Assembly (NCBI GenBank): GCA_036507655.1
Contig: DATCIS010000019.1
Coordinates: 10,736 to 74,735, forward strand
Direction: 5' to 3'
DNA: 64,000 bases
Source: Candidatus Saccharimonadales bacterium
Lineage (GTDB): Bacteria > Patescibacteriota > Saccharimonadia > Saccharimonadales > UBA10212
A model generated the notes under the pieces. It searched no databases and was not told where the DNA came from. It was given only the letters and a program-made list of their open reading frames with translations. Numbering within the stretch: the stretch's first letter is position 1; every line of letters starts with the position of its first letter. Made by a program: the position numbers and the translations under genes. Shown here piece after piece: positions 28,707 to 64,000 of this stretch.

Positions 28707-29187
28707 TTATCTTACCAATGCGTCGTTGATGACGTGCTTCTTCACGAAAAGGCGTCTCCAACCATAATTTAATCACCTGCTTCATATCTTCGAGGGCTAC
28801 AAATCGGGCAGCCAGGCTCAGCATATTGGAATCATTGTGGGTTCGGCTTAGCCGGACAACCTCATATGGATCGTGGCTGGTGCGACCGGTCACATCAGTA
28901 ACTTTTCTGGACACGGCAGGCCCATAAAACAGGCTACACCGTATGCCTTTGATTTTATTAGCCACCATCGCCTCGCCTTGCCCTGAGCCACCAAAAACTA
29001 GGCCTCGTTGGCATTCGCCGGAAGCTACTGATTCGGCAGCCGGAATAATAAAATCCGGGTAATCATCATCTGGATTTAGACTCTTGGGGCCGAAATTTTT
29101 AACTTCGTGCCCTGCTGATTCGAGATAAGCGGCTATATCATTAAGTTGCTCAAATCCAGCGTGGTCAGATGCCAGTGCAATCTTCAT
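28690..29187 (-). CDS. rpiB: ribose-5-phosphate isomerase B (RpiB/LacAB family)
   Basis: 165 aa; MKIALASDHAGFE... GECQRGLVFGGSGQGEAMVANK typical of RpiB. Confidence 0.85.
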   Translation of the reverse strand: MKIALASDHAGFEQLNDIAAYLESAGHEVKNFGPKSLNPDDDYPDFIIPAAESVASGECQRGLVFGGSGQGEAMVANKIKGIRCSLFYGPAVSRKVTDVTGRTSHDPYEVVRLSRTHNDSNMLSLAARFVALEDMKQVIKLWLETPFREEARHQRRIGKINGLGS

Positions 29188-29217
29188 TTTTCTTCTCCCA
29201 TTTTAAGGAAAAGAGAA

Positions 29218-29280
29218 GCCCGAGCGGCGGATTCATTCCGCGCCCGGCGCGATGAGAAAAACGTAGTTTGTCTCATAAGC
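29218..29280 (+). repeat. double-hairpin intergenic repeat element, copy C
   Basis: gcccgagcggcggattcattccgcgcccggcgcgatgagaaaaacgtagtttgtctcataagc; 5' module shared with copy D, 3' gcgcgatgaga...tctcataag module shared with A, B and D. Confidence 0.6.
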
Positions 29281-29287
29281 GTCAGCG

Positions 29288-40980: not shown

Positions 40981-41037
40981 CTTGTTAAAAAGTATAACAA
41001 CTCTAACCCCTATACCCTAGCGCCTCCACCGCGGCTT

Positions 41038-41119
41038 TGCCGTATAAGACACCCCTTTGGGTTTCCTATCGCGCAGGGCGCGGAATGAATCCGCTACTCG
41101 GGATACCTTCCCGAGGAAT
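41038..41119 (-). repeat. double-hairpin intergenic repeat element, copy D (inverted orientation, in pheS 5' leader)
   Basis: Minus strand cctcgggaaggtatcccgagtagcggattcattccgcgccctgcgcgataggaaacccaaaggggtgtcttatacggc; matches copy C 5' module and copy B 3' module. Confidence 0.6.
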
Positions 41120-41124
41120 AAGTT

Positions 41125-41157
41125 CTATATCCTATTCATTAAATCCTATATCCTATT
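41125..41157 (+). promoter_or_regulatory. two perfect 12-bp direct repeats CTATATCCTATT with 21-bp period, ending 4 nt before the GH63-like gene ATG
   Basis: ttCTATATCCTATTcattaaatcCTATATCCTATTagt ATG. Confidence 0.4.
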
Positions 41158-43853: not shown

Positions 43854-44585
43854 CTAATCTATAGCGATACGGGTAAGGAGGAACATAGAAAGAGCGCCCA
43901 TAATTGTTAGGCCAATTGTCAGGCGGGAAGAATTTTTGCTATGCGCCTGCGGTAAGATGTCGCTGGCGCCGATATATAGTAAAAAGCCGGCAAAAAACCC
44001 CAGATAAACCGCCAACACAGCTCCCGAGAGCGAAAAAAGTAAACTGCTTAGGCCGCCCATAATCGGCATCACCGCGGCTATCGCCAGCATTTTTTTAGCC
44101 CGGGATGGTTTGTTTTGGTGGTAAAGCATAACGTTGGTGGTGTTAAAACCATCGGCGAAGCGGTGGCCAATGACGGCAATTGCTACTGCTGCACCGACCG
44201 CAGTGCTAACTTGGAAGCCGATGCCTATACTCAGACCGTCTAGAAAGCTGTGTCCTGACAAAGCCACTGCCCCTGCAACACCGACAAAAGGATGCCGGTG
44301 CGGACCGTATTTTTCTTCGCTGCCATGGTGAATCAAGATAAGTTTTTCGATTACGTGAAATAGCAGAAAACCGCTGACCAAGGTTATCATTGGCCAAATA
44401 GGGTCAAGGTTTTCTGAGAAGCTAATCTCGAAAATCTCGGGTAGTAAGTTAAATGCCACCAACCCTAAAATCAAGCCGGCGGTAAAACCGAAGGCCAGGT
44501 GCAGCCTGCGTCGCCCGCGGATAGCAATAAACCCACCCAGCAATGCTGCCAAGGCAGCCGCCAGGGTTAGGAGGAACAACACCAT
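43854..44585 (-). CDS. ZIP-family metal (zinc/iron) permease
   Basis: 243 aa, 8 predicted TM, His-rich motifs HHGSEEKYGPHRH and SGHSFLDGLSIGIG. Confidence 0.85.
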   Translation of the reverse strand: MVLFLLTLAAALAALLGGFIAIRGRRRLHLAFGFTAGLILGLVAFNLLPEIFEISFSENLDPIWPMITLVSGFLLFHVIEKLILIHHGSEEKYGPHRHPFVGVAGAVALSGHSFLDGLSIGIGFQVSTAVGAAVAIAVIGHRFADGFNTTNVMLYHQNKPSRAKKMLAIAAVMPIMGGLSSLLFSLSGAVLAVYLGFFAGFLLYIGASDILPQAHSKNSSRLTIGLTIMGALSMFLLTRIAID

Positions 44586-44612
44586 GAGTTTATTCTATAT
44601 TCCGAACTCTAG

Positions 44613-44624
44613 AATTTGCAAATT
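44613..44624. promoter_or_regulatory. 12-bp perfect palindrome AATTTGCAAATT in the ZIP/Fur-family divergent promoter region (candidate Zur/Fur box)
   Basis: agAATTTGCAAATTtgtcgcaatttttt read directly; AT-rich flanks. Confidence 0.45.
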
Positions 44625-44653
44625 TGTCGCAATTTTTTATAATTTTGCTATAG

Positions 44654-45076
44654 ATGCACTACAAAACGTTGCGGGCACTACTGAAGAAAAACGGTTCGAG
44701 CCTTACCAAGCCGCGTAAGGTTGTTTTTGATTTACTTTTCAACCAAAAACCACAGACTATGCAGGTCTTAATCGGTCGGGCTAAAGATAGGGTGGACCGA
44801 GCCAGCGTTTATAGAGCTATGGAGTTGTTTGAGAAGCTGGGAATTGTCAACCGCTTAAATATCGGCTGGAAATACAAGTTCGAGTTATCTGATGTCTTCC
44901 AAGAACACCACCATCATTTCCACTGTACCAACTGCGGTACAACGTTCAGTCTTGAGCCAAACTCGATGCTTGAGACAATGATAGATACAGTAGCTGCCAA
45001 ATCCGGTCACTCGCCACGAGGCCACCAGCTAGAGGTTTACGGATTATGCGCCGATTGCCAACGTCGGACCGCCTAA
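44654..45076 (+). CDS. zur: Fur-family transcriptional regulator (Zur-like, divergent from ZIP transporter)
   Basis: 140 aa; winged helix then HHHHFHCTNCG ... LCADCQ metal-binding motifs. Confidence 0.85.
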   Translation: MHYKTLRALLKKNGSSLTKPRKVVFDLLFNQKPQTMQVLIGRAKDRVDRASVYRAMELFEKLGIVNRLNIGWKYKFELSDVFQEHHHHFHCTNCGTTFSLEPNSMLETMIDTVAAKSGHSPRGHQLEVYGLCADCQRRTA

Positions 45077-45093
45077 CTTTTTGATCATTTTTT

Positions 45094-45174
45094 CCGGATG
45101 AGCAGCCCGACAAAATGTATTCCATTTTGCCGGTGCGATGAGAAACCGCGAAGGGGTTTCTCATAAGGCCGGAG
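45094..45174 (+). repeat. double-hairpin intergenic repeat element, copy A (between convergent zur and MFS genes)
   Basis: ccggatgagcagcccgaCAAAATGtattcCATTTTGccggtgcgATGAGAAACCgcgaaggGGTTTCTCATaaggccgg; two perfect hairpins (7-bp and 10-bp stems). Confidence 0.65.
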
Positions 45175-46751: not shown

Positions 46752-47936
46752 ATGGCATCCGAGAAGCAGAAAGTCCTTATTTTAGGCGGCGGGTTCGGCG
46801 GAGTTAAGACCGCGCTGGAGCTGGCTAACCATCCTCATTTTGCGGTGACCCTGATGTCAGACCAGCTGAATTTCCGTTACTATCCCGCGCTATACCAGGC
46901 TGCCACCGGCGGTAGCCCGGTAGCGTCATCAATACCCCTTTCAGAGATTTTTGCCGGCAAAAACGTCCGGATAGTCCAAGACAGCGCTAAAAAGCTTGAT
47001 AGGCATAGCAAACAAATCCACTGCAAATCCGGCAAAATCTACGGCTATGATGTTCTTGTGGTAGCCCTGGGGGTAATTACCAACTATTTTGGGATTAAGG
47101 GATTAAAGGAGTATTCCTTCGGCATTAAAACCCTGGAAGATGCCCAAGAATTGCGCGACCACCTGCATAAACTCTTGATGGCTGAAGGCCAGCCGGACCT
47201 CAACTATGTAATCATCGGCGGCGGCCCGACCGGCGTCGAGTTGGCGGGCGTTCTGCCGGCCTATATCAAACACATTATGCAGAGGCATAAATTTCCCGCC
47301 AAAGCTATTCATGTTGAGCTAGTGGAGGCCGAACCGTATCTGGTACCGAGGATGCCGCGGCCTTATTCCATCGCTATCCAAAAACGGTTGCACCGCCTTG
47401 GCGTAAAGCTTCATTTGCACCAAAAAGTCGAGGCTGAAACCGCTGACAGACTGACGGTTAGCGGCCGCAGCATTGTTAGCCATACGGTCGTTTGGACGGC
47501 CGGTGTCACCAACCATCCCTTCCTAGCGGCTAATAAATTCAGCTTCAGTGAACAAGCCAAAGTTTTAGTTAACGAGTTGCTGCAGGCGGAAGAAGACATT
47601 TACGTTATCGGCGACAATGCCGACACCATATATTCGGGCATGGCGCAGACGGCTCTTTACGACGGTAAGTTCGTGGCTGAAAATTTTAAACGCCTGGCGA
47701 GGGGTAAACACCCTTGGCCGTATAAGCCCCGCAAACCGGTTTACGTCACTCCCGTCGGCCAACATTGGGCAGCGGTGCAATGGGGTAATCTGCAGATTTA
47801 CGGCTGGTTGGGGTGGGTGCTGCGGCGGGTAGCCGATTTTGTCGGCTATCACGACCTGCAGCCATGGTGGTCGGCTTACAAGCACTGGGAAGCCGAAAAT
47901 CAGAGCGGCGAAACCTGCAAAACATGTAGAGGTTAA
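46752..47936 (+). CDS. ndh: type II NADH dehydrogenase (NDH-2) / FAD-dependent pyridine nucleotide-disulfide oxidoreductase
   Basis: 394 aa; two Rossmann GxGxxG motifs (ILGGGFGG, IIGGGPTGVELAG). Confidence 0.75.
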   Translation: MASEKQKVLILGGGFGGVKTALELANHPHFAVTLMSDQLNFRYYPALYQAATGGSPVASSIPLSEIFAGKNVRIVQDSAKKLDRHSKQIHCKSGKIYGYDVLVVALGVITNYFGIKGLKEYSFGIKTLEDAQELRDHLHKLLMAEGQPDLNYVIIGGGPTGVELAGVLPAYIKHIMQRHKFPAKAIHVELVEAEPYLVPRMPRPYSIAIQKRLHRLGVKLHLHQKVEAETADRLTVSGRSIVSHTVVWTAGVTNHPFLAANKFSFSEQAKVLVNELLQAEEDIYVIGDNADTIYSGMAQTALYDGKFVAENFKRLARGKHPWPYKPRKPVYVTPVGQHWAAVQWGNLQIYGWLGWVLRRVADFVGYHDLQPWWSAYKHWEAENQSGETCKTCRG

Positions 47937-47941
47937 AGCCT

Positions 47942-49483
47942 ATGGACGCCAAAAAACTGATTTTTAAAGGACAACGGGCACTCGATTTAGTTGATGGACG
48001 GCTGGATCGACTAACGTCATATCGGCTGGTGCTGTACTCGCTGCTGGCTTTTGTGGCCTGGGGAATACTGGGTGGTTTGATGGGCGAGATCGCCTTTGAA
48101 TGGCACCAGGTTTTAGCTTCAACCGCCTTTTTGGCGGTCGTTTGCGTCACCGTCAACTACATAGCTTCTGAGCTACTCAATATCCCGCGCAACAAAGAAT
48201 CCGACTATATAACCGCTTTGATACTGGCTCTGATTTTAATGCCAGCCCAAGAACCTAATGATTACCTGATTTTGGCTGCAGCCGGTTCAGCCGCGATGCT
48301 GTCAAAGTACGTTCTGGTTTACGGCCAGCGGCATATTTTTAACCCGGCGGCAGCCGGCGCGTTCACGGTAGCTCTGCTATTTGATTATTTCCCGGCCTGG
48401 TGGATTGGGACGGCTTTTCTGGTACCGCTGGTCTTTATTGCCGGACAGCTGATTTTGCGCAAGATGAAGCGTTATTTAATGGTCAGCGTTTTTATGAGCA
48501 TCTATTTAGGTTACCTGGTTATTAATTTCTTTCTTAAAGACCAGGCCGGCGATCTGCTAAATATTGTCTGGGTCGGGCTGACTGCTACGCCAGTACTCTT
48601 CTTTGCCTACATTATGCTGACCGAGCCATCTTCTTCTCCGCATAAGCCGAAGCAAATGCTGGCCTACGCCACTCTCGTGGGAGTACTTTACTCGGTCAGC
48701 GATTGGCACTTCGCACCCGAAGAAGCCCTGCTTCTTGGCAATCTGTTCGCTTTTATCATGGCGCCCAATCGCCGTTTTGAGCTAGCGCTCAAACAAAAGA
48801 AAAAAGAGGCTAAAGATATCTACAGCTACATATTTAGTGGTAAAAAGAATTTACGGTTTGCTGCCGGCCAATATATGGAGTGGACACTACCGATGGTTAA
48901 GGCCGATACCCGCGGCAACCGGCGTTATTTTACTGTTTCTTCAGCGCCAACCGAAGATTATCTGATGTTTACCACCAAAGAACCAGAGAAGCGCAGCAGT
49001 TTTAAAGCCGGGCTGGAGAAACTGCAAGAGGGCGATAAGATGCTGGCCTACCAGCTCGAAGGCTCGTTTGTATTACCAAAGCACACTAGCCAAAAGTTGG
49101 CTTTTTTGGCCGGCGGCATCGGTGTTACGCCATTTCGCAGTATCATTAAATACCTCCTCGACAGCCGGCAAAAGCGCGACATCACACTGCTATATTCAGC
49201 CAACAGCGCCGATGAGTTCGCTTTTACCGACTTATTTCAACAATCACTACAAGCTGGCATCACAACGCATTACGCGCTCAGCGGTGAGGCACCCGATAAT
49301 TGGCTTGGTTTCAAAGGCCCGGTAGATGCCGCAATGATAAAGACCGCAGTTCCCGATTACAAAGAGCGTGTTTTCTACATATCCGGACCGTACGGTTTCG
49401 TTACCGGGTTACGGCAAACCCTGCTTAAAATGGGTTTGCCTCGCCAAAAAATCATTTCTGACTACTTCCCGGGTTACGGCTAG
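47942..49483 (+). CDS. fusion protein: N-terminal RnfD/NqrB-like membrane domain (with TATP flavinylation-type motif) + C-terminal FNR-like FAD/NAD(P)H-binding reductase domain
   Basis: [28 protein letters not shown] aligns with RnfD [33 protein letters not shown] matches the RnfD/NqrB S-x-A-T-P-L FMN-attachment motif. C-terminal RYFTVSS (RxYS), [20 protein letters not shown] are FNR-family motifs. Confidence 0.6.
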   Translation: [513 protein letters not shown]

Positions 49484-50149
49484 AGCTTCGTAGTCTTTTT
49501 GTTTTTTGACAAAATCGATGCCTTTTTTGCCCATGGCGAAGGCGGCCGTGGCTAGAACATCGGCTGAGATGATATCCGGACCGACCACAGTAATGCTTAG
49601 TATTTCGTCGGCCGGTTTTTTAGTTTTGGGGTTGATGATGTGCCCTCCGCGCTCGTAATTCCCCGATGTAGCCACCGCTCCGTTAGAAATACTTAACTTG
49701 TTAAGTATTCTCTGCTTATCAGTTGGATCTTGGATACCGATTTTCCAAATTTTATCGCTGCTCGAACGGCATAAAATATCACCACCAGCATAGATGGAGT
49801 AGGTTTTTTGGCCTTTGGATTCTAAAACCCTTCCAGCCTCGGCTATCGCCCAGCCTTTTACATACCCACTCGGGTCACAACTATCGCCGTACCATGCCGA
49901 GAAATAGCCATCTGTTTTTTCTTCAGCCCTTCGGCAGGCATGAAGTATGAATTTCATCTCGGGGCTCAAAGTCAGCTCATTTAGCTCACCGCGGTTATAT
50001 TTGGAAAGCTCGCTGTTCTTCTTATAGGGGCTGAACTGCCTATCAATCGCCCGCAATCTGTCAAAAGCGGCTTTTACAACAGACTCATTTTTAAGCTGTG
50101 GGACCTCGATAGTCACGGCCATGCCCATAACTCGGGCGGTTTTTCTCAT
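49409..50149 (-). CDS. apbE: ApbE-family FAD:protein FMN transferase (short form)
   Basis: 246 aa; N-terminal VMGMAVTIEV (MGT-type start), GGD, SISNGAVATSG, ADVLATAAFAMG motifs; 3' end overlaps the convergent fusion gene by 75 bp. Confidence 0.75.
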   Translation of the reverse strand: MRKTARVMGMAVTIEVPQLKNESVVKAAFDRLRAIDRQFSPYKKNSELSKYNRGELNELTLSPEMKFILHACRRAEEKTDGYFSAWYGDSCDPSGYVKGWAIAEAGRVLESKGQKTYSIYAGGDILCRSSSDKIWKIGIQDPTDKQRILNKLSISNGAVATSGNYERGGHIINPKTKKPADEILSITVVGPDIISADVLATAAFAMGKKGIDFVKKQKDYEALAVTREVVRNDFLARQTHFKQGLP

Positions 50150-50152
50150 GAC

Positions 50153-50593
50153 CTATGATTTAGAAGCATCGTATGCTTTATCAAGCGCCGACTGCAGCGA
50201 TTCCTGATAGCCGTAACTGGTACTGGTGGCCCCTGTTACAAAATCGATTTGATCACTTTGCTTTTCGAGGGTAGTGGCTTTAAGTAGGGGCTTGGACATT
50301 TCGGTTAGTTGTTGAGTACGACCGTCGTCTTTATCAGGCATCTGCCTAAACTGCACATCGCTAATTTTGCCGCTGGTTATTACAATTGTAATCTGAACAT
50401 TGCCATACAGCGTCTCAGCCACATCACTAGTGTACGTACCGTTCGGGTAATTATTCGCCTGAGTAGACCTATCCCCAATCCGGTTCTGGCTGGCCTGGAC
50501 GGCCGGTTCGTTAGATTCATTCTGTATCAACATATAACCACCCAGCCCACCTAAAATCGCCACCACCAAAACAATAACTAAACCTTTTTTCAC
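50153..50593 (-). CDS. FMN_bind-domain protein (NqrC/RnfG-like), membrane-anchored, with flavinylation motif
   Basis: 146 aa; N-terminal TM LVIVLVVAILGGLGGYML; C-terminal DFVTGATSTS (S/T-G-A-T-S/T flavin-attachment consensus); 3-bp gap to apbE. Confidence 0.75.
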   Translation of the reverse strand: MKKGLVIVLVVAILGGLGGYMLIQNESNEPAVQASQNRIGDRSTQANNYPNGTYTSDVAETLYGNVQITIVITSGKISDVQFRQMPDKDDGRTQQLTEMSKPLLKATTLEKQSDQIDFVTGATSTSYGYQESLQSALDKAYDASKS

Positions 50594-50667
50594 TACATTC
50601 AGTTTACCAGCAGACTTTAATTTAAGCTGAAGTCTAAGTTTTCACTTTGAGTTGACCGCCCTTTTTC

Positions 50668-50747
50668 TCCGGAAGAGCAGCCAGACAAAATGTATTCCAT
50701 TTTGCCTGCGCGATGAGAAACCACGAAGGGGTGTCTCATAAGGCCGT
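50668..50747 (+). repeat. double-hairpin intergenic repeat element, copy B (about 90% identical to copy A)
   Basis: tccggaagagcagccagacaaaatgtattccattttgcctgcgcgatgagaaaccacgaaggggtgtctcataaggccg; ends 8 nt before the ABC permease stop codon. Confidence 0.65.
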
Positions 50748-50754
50748 TAGGCGC

Positions 50755-53695: not shown

Positions 53696-56077
53696 TTAAG
53701 CCTGGCGCTGGTTATCAATCGGATCCAAATCGCCGACATCCAGTTTTACCACGCTTCCGGGTTGAGCCTCACCGCGCAGAATTTTGGTTGCCACAACGTC
53801 CTCCACTGCATCGGCAATTACCCGCCGCATTGGACGGGCGCCAAATTCCGGATCATATCCGGCCTGGATTAATTTAGCCAAGGCCGCATCGCTCAACTGG
53901 ACCGAGACATTTTGCTTGGCCAAAGTTTGGTTGACATTATTAATCATCAGCTTGGCGACTTGGGTTAGCTCTGGCTGGTTCAGCGACCTGAACAACACGA
54001 TTCCATCGAAACGGTTTATCAGCTCAGCTCGAAAAACATTGCTAGCTATGAGCTTGTCGATCAGCGGCCTCTCAAATGATTCCAACGTATCACCGGCCGC
54101 CACCCTTTGAGTAATCTCGGCTGAACCAGCATTTGATGTAGTGATGATTATAGCATTGCGGAATGACGCTGGGTGGCCGGCTTTATCAGTCAGGCGACCT
54201 TCATCCAGAACCTGCAGTAGCAGGTTAAGCACGGCCTGGCTAGCTTTTTCGACTTCATCTAGCAGTACAACTGAAAACGGTTGCTGCCGGATTTGTAAAA
54301 TCAGGCTTTTGTTGGCCGGGCCGCCGGCCTCCACTAACCGCTCGGCAGCCTCTGACTGGTGATACTCGGTCATGTCTAAGCGAATCATTCGCCGTTCGTC
54401 GCCGAAATAAACCGCTGCCAATGAGCGCCCTAGTTCAGTCTTGCCAACACCGGTTGGACCCAAGAACAAAAAGCTGCCAACCGGGCGCTTGGGGTCGGCC
54501 ACGCCGGCCCGGCCACGTCGCAGCGCTGCCGACACTACTTGAACTGCCCTTTCCTGATTAATCATACGGCTGTGGATACGTTCTTCCAGATTGAGCAAAA
54601 CATCGGCTTCCGGAGCTTCGGCTTTTGCGACTTTTACGCCGCGAGTGATTTCAACAGCCGCTTGCACTGATTCAGCGGTCATAATCTTATCTTGGGTGTA
54701 AGGGATGGACTGCTCAAGCAGGCTGATAGCCTTGCCTGGATAAGCCTGATCCTGCATGTATTGGTCGCTTAGGCGATAGGCCTCACGCACTGCCTGATAC
54801 GTGACATTGATGTGATTTTGGGCCTCCAGCGTTAATGCACTGTCCTCTAAAATCTGCATCGTAATAGTTTGGTCAGGTTCGTTAATGATAATCGGCGCCA
54901 TATGCGCCGCCAGCGACTCACGGTTCGATTTTAATTGCTGCCAGAACTCCGGTGTGAAGGCTGCAACGACTTTTACCGTGTGGTTTTGTAACAGCGGCAG
55001 CAGTATCTGGCTGACGTCAAAAGCGCCTGTGCCTTTTCCAAAAAATAGCTCGGCCTCGTCTAGAAAAATAATGATGTTGCGGGCATGCACGGCTTCATTG
55101 AACAGACGAAGCATAATTTTTTCGAGCTTATCGCCAGCCGCCGACAAAATAGCTGAGGCATTAAGGCTGACAATCTGGTAGTACTGGAGGCTTTGGTCTT
55201 GGCCCCTCAGTAATCTTTCGGCTAGCGCGTACACTAGTGACGTCTTGCCAGTGCCAGCTGGGCCAACAAGCGCAGCGTTCCCCTGGGGCTGGCTCAAAGA
55301 ATGGACTACGCTGTCCAAAACTTCGCCGTGTGCCAGGGTGTGAAAATGGCCATGCCCGGCTTCGACAGCCGAACTGATATTCTGGCCGAACTGGTCGAGG
55401 GTCGGCGTGAAGCCCGATGCCCAGTCGCGGCCAATACCACCAAAATACGGCTTGGGTTGGTTTAAAGACCGGCTTAGACGCCCCAGCCAGTCCGAAGTTT
55501 CCAGTAAATCTTCGCTTGTCAAGTTAAGTTTAGCTAAATAATCTTTTGCCGGTTGAGAGCTAGTAAGCAGAGATGCGGCTAATATCCCGGCGTGTAACTC
55601 GGGGCTGTTTTGCCGCTTCATCAATTCTTGAGCGTTGTGCCAGACAGCTGCCATTTCGTCCGGTACCTCGCTTAATGAGCGTGAAACCTGCTCAGTTGAA
55701 AGCAATAAGTGATTAATGATGAACCTGCCCTGCCACTCCAACGTGACGGCTTGCCAAGTACTGCGCGGAGTAACCGGTGTCGGCTTACTGAAACGAGCTA
55801 GCAGTTTAGGTTCGAGAATATCGTCGAGCGTACGCGGCGCTAAGTTAGGCGGAAGTTTTGCTAAATCACGGCGATACCATAGGCCGATAACGGCGGTGAA
55901 TGATGACAGGCACAGGCCAGCAAAGCCGAGATTTTTTGAGTCAGCGGCAATCAGAAAGGCAATTCCTAGAACTACCGAGACGACCGAGCTGGATAACAGC
56001 ACAAGGCCTCCTCTGTTGCCTATCAAAGCTGCCAGCCTGGCTTGGCGCGCCCGCAGACTGTTGAGTTCTAGCTCCAT
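53696..56077 (-). CDS. membrane-anchored Hsp100/Clp-family AAA+ ATPase (two TM helices, Clp_N-like repeats, two AAA+ modules, no ClpP-docking IGF/LGF loop)
   Basis: 793 aa; TM LVLLSSSVVSVVLGIAFLIAA and FAGLCLSSFTAVIGLWY; NBD1 GPAGTGKTS/IIIFLDEAE; NBD2 GPTGVGKTE/VVLLDEVEKA, sensor GARPMRR. Confidence 0.8.
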   Translation of the reverse strand: MELELNSLRARQARLAALIGNRGGLVLLSSSVVSVVLGIAFLIAADSKNLGFAGLCLSSFTAVIGLWYRRDLAKLPPNLAPRTLDDILEPKLLARFSKPTPVTPRSTWQAVTLEWQGRFIINHLLLSTEQVSRSLSEVPDEMAAVWHNAQELMKRQNSPELHAGILAASLLTSSQPAKDYLAKLNLTSEDLLETSDWLGRLSRSLNQPKPYFGGIGRDWASGFTPTLDQFGQNISSAVEAGHGHFHTLAHGEVLDSVVHSLSQPQGNAALVGPAGTGKTSLVYALAERLLRGQDQSLQYYQIVSLNASAILSAAGDKLEKIMLRLFNEAVHARNIIIFLDEAELFFGKGTGAFDVSQILLPLLQNHTVKVVAAFTPEFWQQLKSNRESLAAHMAPIIINEPDQTITMQILEDSALTLEAQNHINVTYQAVREAYRLSDQYMQDQAYPGKAISLLEQSIPYTQDKIMTAESVQAAVEITRGVKVAKAEAPEADVLLNLEERIHSRMINQERAVQVVSAALRRGRAGVADPKRPVGSFLFLGPTGVGKTELGRSLAAVYFGDERRMIRLDMTEYHQSEAAERLVEAGGPANKSLILQIRQQPFSVVLLDEVEKASQAVLNLLLQVLDEGRLTDKAGHPASFRNAIIITTSNAGSAEITQRVAAGDTLESFERPLIDKLIASNVFRAELINRFDGIVLFRSLNQPELTQVAKLMINNVNQTLAKQNVSVQLSDAALAKLIQAGYDPEFGARPMRRVIADAVEDVVATKILRGEAQPGSVVKLDVGDLDPIDNQRQA

Positions 56078-56079
56078 AA

Positions 56080-56439
56080 TCAGCCCGTGAATGCCCTGAT
56101 TAAGAAGTAAATTGCCGCCAATGGCAGAAGCGGCCAGATCACGGCCACTACCAGGCTGAAAATTGCATTTACACTTATTACTACCGCTGCCGCAATCAAT
56201 GTCAAAAGACGCACAAAGAAGCCAATGGTCCTGGAAACCAGATTATCGATGGTCGCTCTGAATTTTTCATCTATAGACCTGCCGGGTGCTGATATAAGCT
56301 GTTTCCAAGGCGCAAATAAATTCTCGAGTAATGGGGGGATGGAAAATTCCAGACCAGCTCTTTTGATGGACCTGGGAACGTCGCGCCAGGCTTCAAGCCA
56401 ACCTAAGCCATACCACCACTTGAAGAGCTCAAAAAACAT
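56080..56439 (-). CDS. small membrane protein (2 TM) in an operon with the membrane Clp-like ATPase
   Basis: 119 aa; C-terminal hydrophobic segments IGFFVRLLTLIAAAVVISVNAIFSLVVAVIWPLLPLAAIYFLI; stop 2 nt before the ATPase start. Confidence 0.5.
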   Translation of the reverse strand: MFFELFKWWYGLGWLEAWRDVPRSIKRAGLEFSIPPLLENLFAPWKQLISAPGRSIDEKFRATIDNLVSRTIGFFVRLLTLIAAAVVISVNAIFSLVVAVIWPLLPLAAIYFLIRAFTG

Positions 56440-56517
56440 AAGCCCATTTTATCAGGAATTAGGATATAAGAAGAAATGACAAGCAGACGTTAAATTATTT
56501 TGGGGCAGCCAGCGTGT

Positions 56518-57096
56518 TTAACCCGCCGGCCGCCCCTTTATCCAGTACCCTCTGGCTGCATTACCTCTCGGTGCAGGCGGTAAGCCAGATTGACGAATCA
56601 TCTCAGACCACGATCCGAAGACCTTCTGAACGCAGCGTAGTGGTGGAGCTTCGAACTCGTAGTAGCGATTGACCCGTTCCAGGTGGCCCTGCCTTACTGC
56701 TTGGGCTGGATGCCAATCTGCAACCGCGGGCGTGTAACCAAAATGCTTATGCCACTCACGGGCTTTTTGTAGAATTGACTCGCTAGTCCATTTCTTGCCG
56801 CCCGCAGGACGGTAGATTCCTGACATCACTCGCAAATCGGCTACTCTTCTCACCCCGAGACCCAATTTTGCGGCGATTTCCTCATCGCTCTTACCGGCTT
56901 CGGCAAGTACTCGAACTTGCTCTTGCCTAACCTTAGTCCGACTGTTTTCTCGATTGAGGTTTCCGACCACCTGTCGAATTCGCTCAGCAGTTACACCTTC
57001 GCGAGCTCCGATTTCCTTTAGGGTCTTACCTTCCTCAAGAAGTTCTTTGCGCATGGTCTCGATTTTCTCGGGAGACCATCGCCGGTTCGGTGGCAT
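56518..57096 (-). CDS. DNA-binding protein with two sigma-70 region-4-like HTH motifs and a C-terminal HEARO-like (homing-endonuclease-associated repeat) domain
   Basis: LKEIGAREGVTAERIRQV and EEIAAKLGLGVRRVADLRV HTH; C-terminal WTSESILQKAREWHKHFGYTP...FGSWSEMIRQSGL resembles the HEARO consensus FGSW..A...AGL; AAAGGAGG SD. Confidence 0.45.
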   Translation of the reverse strand: MPPNRRWSPEKIETMRKELLEEGKTLKEIGAREGVTAERIRQVVGNLNRENSRTKVRQEQVRVLAEAGKSDEEIAAKLGLGVRRVADLRVMSGIYRPAGGKKWTSESILQKAREWHKHFGYTPAVADWHPAQAVRQGHLERVNRYYEFEAPPLRCVQKVFGSWSEMIRQSGLPPAPRGNAARGYWIKGRPAG

Positions 57097-57440
57097 TTTA
57101 GCCTCCTTTAGTCTAGAAGTCTGCTTGTCAAGAGTTCGTCTTGGAGTCCGTACCAGGCGGACTCAATAAAGACTACCATACTATAAAATATCCACACCTT
57201 TATTACAATTCGCCTAAGTGAGGGTATTAAATTGGTTGGCATCGCGATGCTCACCTGAGCAGACACGTCAAAAGTATCAACATCTAAGCCGAGGACTTGC
57301 CGAGCGAATTTTTTGAGGGAAACTCATGAGCGAGACCGACCGTTAGGGAGTTCCGCAGGTTGTTGTGTGCTTTGACAGGTGGCTGCATCAAGCGAGAAGA
57401 ACGTTAGCGAATTTGATACCCGAACGCCTGAGCTGCTACA

Positions 57441-58277
57441 ATGACTTCGAATGCCACTGGGAAATGTCAATTGGGGGTTGCTTTGCTAAGCATGGATTTC
57501 GCCACCGAGGCTTTGGCAGCCGAGAAACTATTTAATCTTGGCCCTCTACCGTTCACCAATAGTATGCTCTTTGGTATCCTGATGGCTATTCTGGTACTAG
57601 GTTTATTCGGCTTGGCTGCTCGCGTCAGCCAACTATGGCCCAAAAATCGACTCGTCTACTGGTTTGAGAGTTTTACTGAACTGGTGATGGGTATGATTAT
57701 CGAGACTTTCGGTGGTGATCGTAAACGCGCGCTGCGGCATTTTCCTCTGCTGATTACACTTTTGGTTTTTATCTTGGCCTGCAATCTTAGCGGTTTACTA
57801 CCAGGGGTGGGTTCTATTACCTACAATGGCACTCAGTTATTTCGCGCCTGGACCACTGACTTGAACTCAACTTTAGCAATGGCGACTTTGGCCTTGGCGA
57901 CTGTCCACATCTACGCCGTTAAGGAAATTGGTGGACTGGGTTATTTCCGCCATTTTTTCTCCGGCAATCTTAAAAACCCAATGAATATCTTTATCGGACT
58001 TAACGAGCTCTTCGGAGAAGTTTTGCGTCTGGTAACACTATCGCTGCGTCTTTTCGGGGTTATATACGGCGGTGAGGCCCTGCTTTTCGCCATTGCGGCA
58101 CTGGCTGGCAACTTGGCCTGGGCAGCCACATTACCGATAATGTTTCTGGAAATCTTTGTGGCGTTTGTCCAGGCCTATCTGTTCATGATGCTGACTGCCA
58201 GCTATCTGATGATGTCCACTACTCATAACGAGTCATCGGAGAGTCACTCGATTCAGGCGGCTGGAGCCAGGAATTAA
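57441..58277 (+). CDS. atpB: F0F1 ATP synthase subunit a
   Basis: 278 aa; LSLRLFGVIYGGE conserved a-subunit motif with essential Arg; start may be the internal MDFATE. Confidence 0.85.
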   Translation: MTSNATGKCQLGVALLSMDFATEALAAEKLFNLGPLPFTNSMLFGILMAILVLGLFGLAARVSQLWPKNRLVYWFESFTELVMGMIIETFGGDRKRALRHFPLLITLLVFILACNLSGLLPGVGSITYNGTQLFRAWTTDLNSTLAMATLALATVHIYAVKEIGGLGYFRHFFSGNLKNPMNIFIGLNELFGEVLRLVTLSLRLFGVIYGGEALLFAIAALAGNLAWAATLPIMFLEIFVAFVQAYLFMMLTASYLMMSTTHNESSESHSIQAAGARN

Positions 58278-58296
58278 TAGGTAAAAAGGAGATTAT

Positions 58297-58512
58297 ATGG
58301 AAGTAGACCCGTCACTAATTAAAGGTTTGACAATCGGCTTGGGCGCTATCGGACCGGCCGTCGGTATCGGTTTAATTGGTGCGGCCGTGGTAGGTGCGGT
58401 CGGGCGGAATCCGGAAATGCAAGGCAAAATCCTGGCTACGGCCTTTATCATGGTCGGGCTAGTGGATGCCGTATTCGCATTCGTGCTGTTAATACTATTC
58501 ACAACTTCATAA
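58297..58512 (+). CDS. atpE: F0F1 ATP synthase subunit c
   Basis: 71 aa hairpin; GLGAIGPAVGIG and conserved carboxylate helix. Confidence 0.85.
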   Translation: MEVDPSLIKGLTIGLGAIGPAVGIGLIGAAVVGAVGRNPEMQGKILATAFIMVGLVDAVFAFVLLILFTTS

Positions 58513-58522
58513 AGGAGCTTAA

Positions 58523-59074
58523 TTGGTTTTGACGATTAGCGTGCCGCTACAATTTGCTCAAGCAGAAGAATCCGCTAGCGGAATCGGTGCTTTTAATATC
58601 AACTTCAAGTCTTTTCTATTCCAGTTGGCAACTTTCGTAATCGTCCTTCTGGTATTGCGGCGTTGGGTATTCCCTAAATTGACTGCCATCATCGAGGCCA
58701 GGCGTAAAACGCTCGAGGAGAGCTTAGTTAAGGCAAAAGAGACAGATGAAGCACTAGCGAGGGCCGAGGAAAAGGCTGGGCAGATTATTAAATCTGCTCG
58801 CGAACAAGCGGATAAGGCCTTGGCTGATGCTCAAATCCAAGCCAAAGAGATAGCCGCTAAGGCTGAAGCAGCCACCGATGCTCAAGCCAAGCGCCTGATA
58901 GACGAGGCTAAGGAACGACTGGGCCACGAGCACCTAAAACTTCGGGAGCAGCTTAAGGCTGAATTAACGGATATGGTTATAATGTCGACCGAGAAAGTCC
59001 TGCGCCAAAAAATCAACCAGGCAGAAGACCGTCGTTTAGTTGAATCCACTGTCAAGGAGCTGGTCAATGATTAG
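58523..59074 (+). CDS. atpF: F0F1 ATP synthase subunit b
   Basis: 183 aa; N-terminal TM then long charged helix; operon position. Confidence 0.7.
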   Translation: MVLTISVPLQFAQAEESASGIGAFNINFKSFLFQLATFVIVLLVLRRWVFPKLTAIIEARRKTLEESLVKAKETDEALARAEEKAGQIIKSAREQADKALADAQIQAKEIAAKAEAATDAQAKRLIDEAKERLGHEHLKLREQLKAELTDMVIMSTEKVLRQKINQAEDRRLVESTVKELVND

Positions 59075-59459
59075 TTTGTCCCGGCGGCGCTTAGCCCAAT
59101 ACGCGGTTGATGAAATACTCGCTGAGCTTCCGGCAGCTGATTTATCGGCTCGCCTGGCAGCGGCTTTAATAGCGACCAACCGGCGCAATGAAATTGATTT
59201 ATTACTATCAGACATTGACCAGGAGTTGGAAGAGCGCCGATTGCTGGTCAGAGCCCATCTGACAAGTGCCTACTGGCTATCAGAAAAGCTGAAGCACGAG
59301 CTCATGACACAGCTTAAGAAGATGACACAAACCCAGGAAGTGGTTTTACGAGAAGAGGTCGATAAATCCGTCATCGGCGGAATCAGGGTTGAGACGGCGA
59401 CCCGCAGCTGGGATATGACGATAAGGCGGACGCTGAACAAGCTTAAGGAGGCCGCCTAG
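59067..59459 (+). CDS. atpH: F0F1 ATP synthase subunit delta (short form); start set at ATG overlapping the atpF stop
   Basis: C-terminal VIGGIRVETATRSWDMTIRRTLNKL matches the delta/OSCP C-terminal motif; the ORF-track TTG start at 59040 is less likely. Confidence 0.65.
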   Translation: MISLSRRRLAQYAVDEILAELPAADLSARLAAALIATNRRNEIDLLLSDIDQELEERRLLVRAHLTSAYWLSEKLKHELMTQLKKMTQTQEVVLREEVDKSVIGGIRVETATRSWDMTIRRTLNKLKEAA

Positions 59460-61063
59460 ATGTCAGGCGTCAAGTTCAATGTCAAAGACCTGGCTGAAGA
59501 GGTCCGGCGCTCGATTGCCAAACTCGAAGCTGCCGGTGATGAAAAAACGGCCGGTGTAGTGACGCGCGTGGGTGATGGTGTTGCCTGGATTTACGGTTTA
59601 GGCTCGTGTGGCTACGCCGAAATGCTGGAAATCGAAGGCTCAAAGGGCCCAGTTTCAGCCTTTGCCTTGAACCTACTGGAAGATGAGATTGGGGCAGTAC
59701 TTCTTGGTGAGGATGTAGGAGTTAAGGCTGGCAATCGTGTTAAACAGACCGGCCAGATTTTGTCAGTTCCGATTGGGCCGGAGCTCGTCGGCCGAGTCAT
59801 TGACCCGCTTGGTCGACCGCTAGACGGCAAAGGACCGGTTGAGGCCAAGCAGCATGGCGAAATCGAAAAAATCGCACCCAATGTACTGGCCCGGCGGAGC
59901 GTTTACCAATCTGTGCCCACAGGAATTACGGCTATTGACGCCATGGTGCCGATTGGCCGCGGGCAACGAGAGCTTATCTTGGGCGACCGCCAGACCGGTA
60001 AAACCGCTATAGCTGTGGATACTATGATTAACCAGGCGCGCCAAAAGACAGGCATTATTAATATTTACGTAGCTATCTCTCAAAAAAGAGCTAAAATCGC
60101 CCGGTTGATTGATCGGCTGCGCCGCGAGGGCGTGATGGAAACAAGCGTTATTGTTGTCACTTCAGCAGCCGACCCGGCGCCGCTGCAATATCTGGCACCG
60201 TATGCCGGCAGCGCCATCGGTGAATGGTTCCGTGACAACAAACAACACGCTCTGATTATCTACGATGATCTTTCCAAGCACGCCGTGGCTTATCGCCAGA
60301 TGTCATTGCTACTGCGTCGTCCACCGGGGCGCGAAGCTTACCCGGGTGACGTTTTCTATCTGCATTCACGGCTGCTTGAGCGAGCCGCCAAGCTGTCTGA
60401 TGAGCTGGGTGGCGGCTCGCTGACCGCCCTACCGATCATCGAGACCCAGGCCGGCGATGTCAGCGCCTATATTCCTACCAATGTGATTTCGATTACTGAT
60501 GGCCAAATCTATCTGGAATCGGACCTGTTCTATCAGGGTATCAGACCGGCGATTTCAGTCGGCCTGTCAGTCTCGCGCGTCGGCGGAAACGCCCAGCCGC
60601 CAGCCATCAAAGAGGTGGCCGGCCGGCTGCGTCTGGATTTGGCCCAGTACCGCGAACTGGCAGCTTTTTCGCAGTTCGCCACTGACTTGGACACCGAGAC
60701 CCAAGCCCGGCTTAGCCGCGGCCGCCTGCTGACGGAAATTTTGAAGCAGCCGCAATACTCGCCGCTGCCCGTCTGGCAGCAAACCACTAGCATCTATGCT
60801 GCTACAGAAGGTGCGTTCGACGGTATACCGATCGAGAACGTCAAGACCGCTCAAAACGCTCTGCTGCGGGAACTGGAGCAAAAGCATGCTAAGCTCGCAG
60901 ATGAATTACAAAAGGGCGAGAAAGCTGGCGACGAGATGAAAAAGGCCATTCTACAAGCTGCCCAAACTGTTGCTGGCCAGTATAAGACGAACCCGGCTGC
61001 CGATAAAAGTACGGAAAACGGTAAACGGCAAACGGTTAACCGAGTGACTGGAGGGAGCATCTA

Positions 61064-61064
<1 letters not shown>
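59460..61064 (+). CDS. atpA: F0F1 ATP synthase subunit alpha
   Basis: 534 aa; Walker [12 protein letters not shown], full alpha-subunit conservation. Confidence 0.95.
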
Positions 61065-63346
<2,282 letters not shown>

Positions 63347-63347
<1 letters not shown>

Positions 63348-63775
63348 TGGCTATCCATTTCCAACTGGTTTCGGCTACCGGCGTCAAGTTTGACGACGAA
63401 GCATATGAGGTACTAGTGCCGACAAAAGACGGCCAAATTGCGGTCTTTGAAGACCATATGCCGCTGCTATCTGCTGGAATGCCTGGCGTTCTAAGCATCC
63501 GCAAACAAGCCAGTGATGTTGACCGGGAAATGGAGCATTTTGCCGTTTACGGCGGCGTATTGGAAGTTGACGGCAAAAATGCCCGCTTTGTGACTGAAGA
63601 TGTAACCGCGGCCGACGAAGTTAGTGAGCAAGAAGCCCATGAGGCGCTGGCTAGAGCGCGAAGACTGGTTGAGGCAGCTGGCAACAGACAGGCCTTGCAC
63701 GAGGCTCAAACCGTCTTACACCACCAGAGTGCCAAGCTCCATCTAGCCCAGTTGAAACGTCGCCACCACCACTAG
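63347..63775 (+). CDS. atpC: F0F1 ATP synthase subunit epsilon (C-terminal His-rich tail)
   Basis: 142 aa; N-terminal beta-sandwich LVSATGVKFDDEAYEVLVPTKDGQIAVFEDHMPLL, C-terminal helices, ends RRHHH. Confidence 0.85.
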
Positions 63776-63784
63776 TGATTCTTC

Positions 63785-64000
63785 TTAACGTTTTTGTTTG
63801 GCGAGCGGAGAGGCTTTCCAGAAAACTTTGATGAGATTAGAGTCGTCGTGGGCGATCCGGCGCGAAATCGCCCACATCTCGACCGGTTTATCACCTTCAT
63901 TGCGGTGTGAACGTGGAGTTTTGGGTGCAACACGAACAGCCGAACCAGCAGGTATTTTTACGATATCATCGCCAAAACGCATGGTCAGCGTACCTTTAGT
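63785..64000 (-). CDS. cupin-domain protein, C-terminal part (gene runs off the window end)
   Basis: Minus-strand translation gives ...PAGSAVRVAPKTPRSHRNEGDKPVEMWAI, matching cupin motif 2 (P-x-G-x2-H-x3-N). Confidence 0.4.
   Translation of the reverse strand, partial: TKGTLTMRFGDDIVKIPAGSAVRVAPKTPRSHRNEGDKPVEMWAISRRIAHDDSNLIKVFWKASPLAKQKR

Follow-up and report, generated by a model that had tools for sequence, protein, structure and literature searches.

The locus that we analyse here is a member of the NQR/RNF-like system, which has been described before. Méheust et al. (2021; eLife 10:e66878, PMC8238504) define it by a protein of flavinylation gene clusters in which PF03116 at the N-terminus is joined to PF00175 at the C-terminus, and whose gene must have an ApbE or FMN_bind gene no more than five genes away. 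Most reported occurrences come from Actinobacteria and the candidate phyla radiation (PMC8238504; PMC10979944). Huang et al. (2024; bioRxiv 10.1101/2024.03.13.584918, PMC10979944) modelled the complex of Ktedonobacter. They proposed that the covalent flavin mononucleotide (FMN) of the NqrC/RnfG-like subunit samples a non-covalent flavin site of the NqrB/RnfD-like subunit, and in their AlphaFold-multimer model the FMN_bind protein sits on the extracytosolic face, its flavin docking where NqrB and RnfD bear covalent FMN. We found no experimental characterisation of the system in the literature. The locus described here lies in a 64,000-nt stretch of DNA from a Candidatus Saccharimonadales bacterium (assembly GCA_036507655.1, contig DATCIS010000019.1), called the window below, and is a further example of this computationally defined system, with a clade-specific gene order. 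We consider it probable that its fusion, FMN_bind and ApbE genes form a three-gene unit of the NQR/RNF-like family through which cytosolic NAD(P)H reduces a covalent FMN on the outer side of the membrane.

Four adjacent genes make up the locus: NDH-2, a type II NADH dehydrogenase (46752-47936, plus strand, 394 aa; Pyr_redox_2, 135 bits), a gene fusing an NqrB/RnfD-like domain to an FNR module (47942-49483, plus strand, 513 aa; PF03116 NQR2_RnfD_RnfE, 34.8 bits, and PF00175 NAD_binding_1, 46.3 bits), ApbE (49409-50149, minus strand, 246 aa; PF02424, 152.6 bits) and FMN_bind (50153-50593, minus strand, 146 aa; PF04205, 33.6 bits). All of these Pfam matches exceed the curated cut-offs (27.7 bits for PF03116). 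An earlier note on this DNA had already read the four as adjacent genes, and they are indeed real open reading frames (ORFs). The ATG of the fusion gene lies 5 nt past the stop of NDH-2 directly upstream, and the FMN_bind stop (TAG) is followed by a single codon (GTC) and then by the ApbE ATG, at the distance of 3 nt that the note gave. What that note did not mention is that the FMN_bind-ApbE pair is convergent with the NDH-2-fusion pair. The 3' ends of the convergent ApbE and fusion genes overlap by 75 nt (49409-49483); the last ~18 residues of ApbE lie outside the part conserved with E. coli ApbE and with relatives, so that the overlap probably corresponds to a non-conserved ApbE tail. Of the hidden Markov model searches that had been proposed, those with PF03116, PF00175, PF04205 and PF02424 scored above their cut-offs, and PF00970 gave no reported match to the fusion at E<=0.01.

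The definition of Méheust et al. describes the locus closely: PF03116 and PF00175 occur in one protein, and the gene that overlaps the 3' end of the fusion gene is ApbE, with FMN_bind next to it, well within five genes. Shared with the published system are the PF03116::PF00175 fusion beside FMN_bind and ApbE, the two structural subunits and the lack of a flavinylated threonine in the fusion. The domain fusion, which the earlier note could place in no characterised complex, is therefore not new: its published definition dates from 2021 and includes the candidate phyla radiation. With Na+-NQR and RNF the locus has in common the NqrB/RnfD fold, an FMN_bind protein akin to NqrC/RnfG with the same motif, an FNR module akin to the FAD/NADH domain of NqrF, and ApbE as the maturation factor. 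It differs from them in four respects. Pfam searches of 10 neighbours and precomputed Pfam assignments within ±10 kb showed none of the partner components (RnfA/E, NqrD/E, RnfB/C, NqrA/F or Fe-S centres), in line with the earlier note, which had seen no Fe-S, NqrD/E, RnfA/E, RnfC or RnfG genes nearby; the FNR module is fused straight to the NqrB-like domain, without the 2Fe-2S domain of NqrF; the fusion lacks the periplasmic loop that carries covalent FMN (on Thr187 in RsxD); and electrons presumably travel one way, not along a semicircular path.

The fusion protein and the flavinylation loop

The fusion protein is identical to the NCBI hypothetical protein VIK37_02035 of Candidatus Saccharimonadales bacterium, and PF03116 and PF00175 cover its residues 163-269 and 388-491, respectively. 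It divides into an N-terminal membrane domain (residues 1-280; 47942-48781, plus strand), which Foldseek, hhalign and MAFFT identify as an RnfD/NqrB fold without the flavinylation loop, and a C-terminal cytoplasmic FNR-type module for flavin adenine dinucleotide (FAD) and NAD(P)H (residues ~277-513; 48770-49483, plus strand), which is recognised by NCBIfam, PDB and Foldseek searches and carries an SGPYGF motif. A phmmer search of the N-terminal domain against PDB sequences returned no matches, so that its kinship with RnfD/NqrB becomes visible only through profiles and folds. AlphaFold models were built from a 50-sequence alignment. The model of the whole fusion has a predicted local distance difference test (pLDDT) score of 88.6 and a predicted template modelling (pTM) score of 0.82, and in a fold search it returns FNR-family reductases (4eh1, TMt 0.81; Foldseek). 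Because this search is dominated by the FNR half, the N-terminal domain was modelled separately (residues 1-280, pLDDT 91.7). Its top 15 PDB matches are all RnfD/NqrB chains (Foldseek; E 1.8e-6 to 1.7e-3, TMq 0.54-0.68), followed by urea transporters, as expected for that fold. An hhalign comparison of the family profile with E. coli RsxD pairs fusion residues 167-273 with RsxD 231-338 and lays the TEP motif (227-229) on TDP. The fold matches and the PF03116 score bear out the RnfD/NqrB relationship proposed in the earlier note, and the sequence block on which it had drawn (FNPAAAGAF...FDYFPAWW) does pair with FNPAM...TSW of RsxD.

The membrane domain is larger than the six or so segments previously estimated: the AlphaFold model and an analysis of hydropathy and charge agree on ~10. 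Loop charges alternate as the positive-inside rule predicts, with the N- and C-termini inside and loop 148-160 outside, and from this we infer a topology in which both termini are cytoplasmic and that loop, which corresponds in position to the flavinylation loop of RnfD, lies on the outer face. The assignment of the C-terminal module to the FNR family stands, with the PF00175 match joined by hits in NCBIfam, to NqrF in the PDB and to 4eh1 by Foldseek. Residues 277-509 match NCBIfam models for flavohaemoprotein, NqrF and others, and the nearest relatives in NCBIfam and the PDB are flavohaemoprotein reductase and NqrF domains (PDB NqrF FAD domain, E 3.5e-12). The module contains the sequences RRYFTVSS (R-x-Y-[ST]) and GGIGVTPF (G-G-x-G-x-x-P) in a two-subdomain fold. 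Both motifs are kept across 82 diverse homologues of the fusion, in which R327, G391, G392, G394, P397, S481 and G482 are invariant.

In E. coli RsxD the FMN-bearing Thr187 stands within DGISQATPLD, in a long loop that follows FPVQMTSW. The fusion has no such [ST]-x-A-T-P-L loop after the helix that corresponds to PVQMTSW. A MAFFT alignment of the fusion with RsxD and two RnfD sequences of solved structures, in the same register as hhalign, leaves ~76 RsxD residues (143-218) without a counterpart and pairs Thr187 with Val161, in a column whose six commonest residues among the 82 homologues are L55/A8/M7/V6/T2/F2. The earlier note had placed Thr216 (codon 48587-48589, plus strand) at the position of the RnfD/NqrB FMN threonine, and this placement we reject. 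By hhalign against RsxD, Thr216 lies in the helix LLSGATMLGAFF, and both alignments pair it with LLSGATML of RsxD, ~90 residues C-terminal of Thr187; its column reads S56/T15/W4/G4/A3 in the 82 homologues. The fusion is devoid of [ST][GQA]A[ST] motifs, and the sole ApbE-type flavinylation motif in any ORF of the window is DFVTGATST of FMN_bind. Given the alignments, the variation of the column and the lack of a motif, Thr216 is a fairly conserved mid-membrane hydroxyl, in the helix ahead of the TEP motif, and not a flavinylation site.

Thr157 (WWIGT) was considered as an alternative FMN site and also rejected: it pairs with RsxD Ile181, six residues before Thr187, or, in another reading of the MAFFT alignment, with the GETS block of RnfD after the loop, and its column is T42/N26/S12. 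Judged from these alignments, the threonine-bearing loop of RnfD/NqrB is deleted and the membrane domain is itself not flavinylated, in agreement with Huang et al. (2024; PMC10979944), where the flavinylated threonine is absent from the NqrB/RnfD-like subunit. Thr123 of FMN_bind, not Thr216 of the fusion, is therefore the residue worth mutating.

The FMN_bind carrier and its leaderless ApbE

Thr123 (codon 50225-50227, minus strand) is the predicted covalent FMN site of the FMN_bind protein, within DFVTGATST (residues 117-125). The protein thus combines an FMN_bind domain with the motif D-x-x-[ST]-G-A-[ST]-x-[ST] of NqrC/RnfG-type ApbE substrates and is predicted to be flavinylated. Residues 102-142 give weak matches to NCBIfam models of RnfG/NqrC, and a strict regular expression, D[IV][IV][ST]GAT.[ST], finds the motif in 40 of 66 FMN_bind homologues. 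At the N-terminus MKK precedes a run of 19 hydrophobic residues (5-23; Kyte-Doolittle 2.64), consistent with a signal anchor, and the succession of MKK or MRK, a transmembrane helix and an acidic or polar stretch is nearly uniform in 60+ homologues. The protein is accordingly predicted, by the positive-inside rule, to be an outward-facing flavin carrier held by one N-terminal anchor helix (N-in/domain-out), which sustains the earlier reading of a membrane-anchored, NqrC/RnfG-like acceptor with the sequence DFVTGATSTS.

ApbE, an FAD:protein FMN transferase, has an intact catalytic domain by its PF02424 score, and its residues 31-228 pair with residues 68-330 of E. coli Ftp/ApbE (BLASTP, 24% identity), including the TSG-Y and AD..T blocks. 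The window protein starts where E. coli residue ~38 falls, and its ATG has a stop codon 2 codons ahead of it. Because it begins at the catalytic core it lacks a signal peptide, and neither a signal peptide nor a lipobox, either of which would mark an extracytosolic ApbE, was found in it. The same is true of related clusters with adjacent FMN_bind and ApbE, where none of 57 ApbE proteins has an export signal; in these clusters ApbE starts a few nt from the FMN_bind stop (gaps mostly -4 to +6 nt), and no in-frame hydrophobic segment lies upstream. From its sequence context, ApbE is translationally coupled to FMN_bind. The two ORFs share a frame in the window, separated by TAG and GTC, and we considered read-through of the stop to give an exported FMN_bind-ApbE fusion. 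This was rejected: with only 15 of the 57 clusters in frame, the share (26%) does not exceed the third that chance would give, and no stop codon is preferred.

Conservation of the unit, electron path and alternatives

Homologues of the fusion number more than 4,861 at E<1e-5, and the family is present in 592 or more species-level genomes, which belong to Patescibacteria, Chloroflexota (Ktedonobacteria, Dictyobacter) and Alphaproteobacteria (Mesorhizobium, Kaistia, Devosia). In a survey of gene neighbourhoods, the ORFs of 82 loci (±8 kb) from 80 genomes of other species were searched with the window proteins. ApbE was found near the fusion in 65 of the 82 loci and FMN_bind in 62, whereas NDH-2, Zwf and the ABC-2 permease were each found in one, ZIP in three and MFS in seven. 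Conservation of the neighbourhood, a check suggested by the earlier note, therefore extends to ApbE and FMN_bind and stops short of NDH-2. The usual arrangement is an operon of abutting same-strand genes, FMN_bind->ApbE->fusion, whereas in the window and its clade the fusion follows NDH-2 and the FMN_bind-ApbE pair is convergent.

NDH-2 adjoins the fusion only in loci L004, L084, L085 and L086. The nearest relatives (L004, L085 and L086, 50-77% identity) share the layout of the window, RmuC-ZIP-Fur-MFS-NDH2-fusion, then convergent ApbE-FMN_bind, then ABC-2/ABC/Zwf, and throughout this Saccharimonadales clade the NDH-2 and fusion genes abut or overlap. NDH-2 is probably co-transcribed with the fusion gene. 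Set against its single occurrence in the survey, the shared layout makes the link to NDH-2 real only within this one clade; a functional tie to the system is possible and finds no support outside the clade. NDH-2, Zwf and ABC-2 were thus rejected as conserved partners, and Zwf, ABC-2, MFS, Fur and ZIP belong to the conserved gene order rather than to the system. The linkage of Zwf and the ABC-2 exporter, offered before as speculative, is shared only in the synteny of the window's own clade.

By homology, the locus encodes a cytoplasmic FNR module, a membrane domain of RnfD/NqrB fold, an FMN_bind protein with the canonical motif and an intact ApbE. NAD(P)H would reduce FAD in the FNR-type module of the fusion, electrons would cross the membrane via one or more non-covalent flavin sites in the NqrB-like domain to reach the FMN bound covalently to Thr123 of FMN_bind on the outer side, and FMN_bind would pass them to an extracytoplasmic acceptor; ApbE would attach FMN from FAD to Thr123, as the motif and the gene coupling suggest. 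Of the route sketched earlier, from cytosolic NAD(P)H through FAD to covalent FMN(s) outside, the FMN on FMN_bind keeps the support of the published model, and the FMN on the fusion is lost with its loop. A metal such as iron is a reasonable guess for the acceptor, with a Fur regulator and a ZIP transporter nearby and VIT1 observed in six clusters by Méheust et al. (2021; PMC8238504), although ZIP occurs in only 3/82 loci.

Several points weigh against this outward route. Neither the electron path nor the acceptor nor the cofactors of the membrane domain go beyond inference, and the docking of FMN_bind is taken from the Huang et al. model of a Ktedonobacter homologue. Two relatives have no ApbE or FMN_bind gene within 7-8 kb of the fusion: L084 (GCA_964482925.1, 7001-10876; 77% identity), which keeps the NDH2-fusion pair, and L001 (8001-9536; 68% identity), with the fusion alone; hence the fusion may also act by itself or with partners encoded elsewhere. 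Finally, an exported enzyme is expected if FMN_bind is flavinylated outside, and ApbE is leaderless in the window and in 57/57 clusters. The standard model does not assume that a flavin transferase of the cytoplasm serves an exported substrate (PMC12052999), and leaderless ApbE is not discussed in the searchable text of Méheust et al. (2021) or Huang et al. (2024). This clash between a leaderless ApbE and an outward substrate domain is a testable inconsistency in the current model and the most interesting point of the locus. If both predictions hold, either FMN_bind matures inside and is then translocated by a route undescribed for ApbE substrates, or the accepted extracytosolic orientation is wrong and the system is an inward-facing minimal NAD(P)H:quinone module, which would be coupled to NDH-2 in this clade; we hold either outcome to be unlikely. 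A cytoplasmic maturation of this kind, with FMN_bind facing inward and the NqrB-like domain delivering electrons to membrane quinone, like NqrB in NQR, as a minimal NAD(P)H:quinone oxidoreductase beside NDH-2, or with FMN_bind flavinylated before or during export, would suit an ApbE that begins at its catalytic core in every cluster, preceded by stops or a non-hydrophobic frame. Cytoplasmic ApbEs with cytoplasmic targets exist (PMC12052999), and the gene probably co-transcribed with the fusion in this clade encodes a quinone reductase, NDH-2. Against it, the FMN_bind N-terminus obeys the positive-inside rule (N-in/C-out) in nearly all homologues, no twin-arginine motif for the export of a folded domain was found in the FMN_bind homologues, and the multimer model of Huang et al. 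puts FMN_bind on the extracytosolic face (PMC10979944). A cytoplasmic FMN_bind beside a cytoplasmic FNR would moreover leave the membrane domain needless, and on these grounds we give cytoplasmic maturation only a small chance.

Another comparison is with the flavin-based extracellular electron transfer (EET; FLEET) locus of Listeria monocytogenes, reportedly described by Light et al. in 2018, whom Méheust et al. cite for the EET model, and said to comprise Ndh2, EetA/B, DmkA/B, PplA and FmnA/B. Both loci cluster NDH-2, an FMN_bind protein and an ApbE-type transferase in a single-membrane cell, and one could imagine electrons running from NDH-2 through the quinone pool to FMN_bind, in which case the fusion would be accessory. 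The operational EET marker of Méheust et al. (2021; PMC8238504) is likewise an NDH-2 encoded in a flavinylation gene cluster, one that has a transmembrane helix. In the PDB the window NDH-2 matches the solved type II enzymes YjlD of B. subtilis (2.3e-35), NDH-2 of C. thermarum (4.8e-32), NDH-2 of S. aureus and Ndi1 of yeast. It lacks the extra transmembrane domain, as no 19-residue stretch reaches a Kyte-Doolittle value of 1.5 (maximum 1.46), and so fails the Listeria-type marker. Among the annotated neighbours within ±10 kb there is no obvious candidate for EetA/EetB, DmkA/DmkB or FmnA (no EET-specific models were run), and FmnB, the ApbE of Listeria, works outside the cytosol (PMC9973259), whereas the window ApbE is leaderless. 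With NDH-2 linked to the fusion in only 1 of 80 species-level loci outside the clade, a Listeria-type pathway is very improbable here. Equally remote is a minimal redox-driven ion pump or channel in which the NqrB/RnfD-like domain keeps flavin-coupled ion translocation: its fold is that of the NQR/RNF ion-pump subunits, and Glu228 of TEP, which pairs with the aspartate of the RnfD/NqrB TDP motif, is near-invariant (E81/D1 of 82), but the rest of a pump core (NqrD/E or RnfA/E) was not found within ±10 kb.

Flanking genes, a structured repeat and redox context

On its upstream side the block is immediately flanked by divergently lying genes for a ZIP metal transporter and a Fur-family regulator (43854-45076), both kept in the clade; ZIP is also near the fusion in two unrelated loci (L010 and L046), a weak hint of a metal-related role. 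In L084 a 104-aa ORF and a HATPase_c protein stand where ApbE and FMN_bind would sit. The downstream part of the window (~53696-64000) holds ordinary housekeeping genes: one for a ClpB-like AAA+ protein of 793 aa, and the first genes of an F-type ATP synthase operon (a, c, b, delta, alpha).

An ~85-nt repeat brackets the MFS-NDH2-fusion-ApbE-FMN_bind block, with copies at 45088-45172 and 50663-50747 that are 92% identical and further copies at 29174-29287 (minus strand) and 41033-41147 (plus strand). Its core, GGCAAAATGGAATACATTTTGTC on the minus strand, is 23 nt long and has exact matches in at least 120 metagenome contigs (loci L088-L207), often abutting tRNA genes. The repeat has two or three hairpins. 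An alignment of 65 copies shows two, with clear compensatory changes in the stems: at 24-40 and 25-39, A-U and C-G replace each other in about half of the sequences, and pair 54-78 is CG41/GC18/AU6, with none broken. Rfam gave no match to the repeat at the gathering threshold or at E<=10, and inspection by eye found no convincing -35/-10 elements on either strand, by which a sigma-70 promoter was rejected. With a covariance model of the repeat, the window yields four copies and ~75 kb from relatives yield none. There Fur and MFS overlap, and the site of repeat copy 2 is occupied by an MgsA gene: in L085 (10363-11595) and L086 (9666-10883) FMN_bind and the ABC-2 permease are separated by an AAA gene of MgsA/RarA type, and the window has a repeat copy in its place, within the interval 50594-50754. 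This suggests a deletion or rearrangement tied to the repeat at the MgsA site. Since it is missing from equivalent sites in relatives, the repeat looks like an inserted element, similar to repetitive extragenic palindromes (REP), miniature inverted-repeat transposable elements (MITE) or terminators, and its behaviour is that of a structured intergenic insertion element in dispersed copies.

In Patescibacteria, Saccharibacteria among them, redox machinery is very scarce, so that any transmembrane electron route affects their NAD(P)H balance and their interactions with hosts or minerals. The locus places the published NQR/RNF-like system, present and intact, in a genome of the Saccharimonadales.

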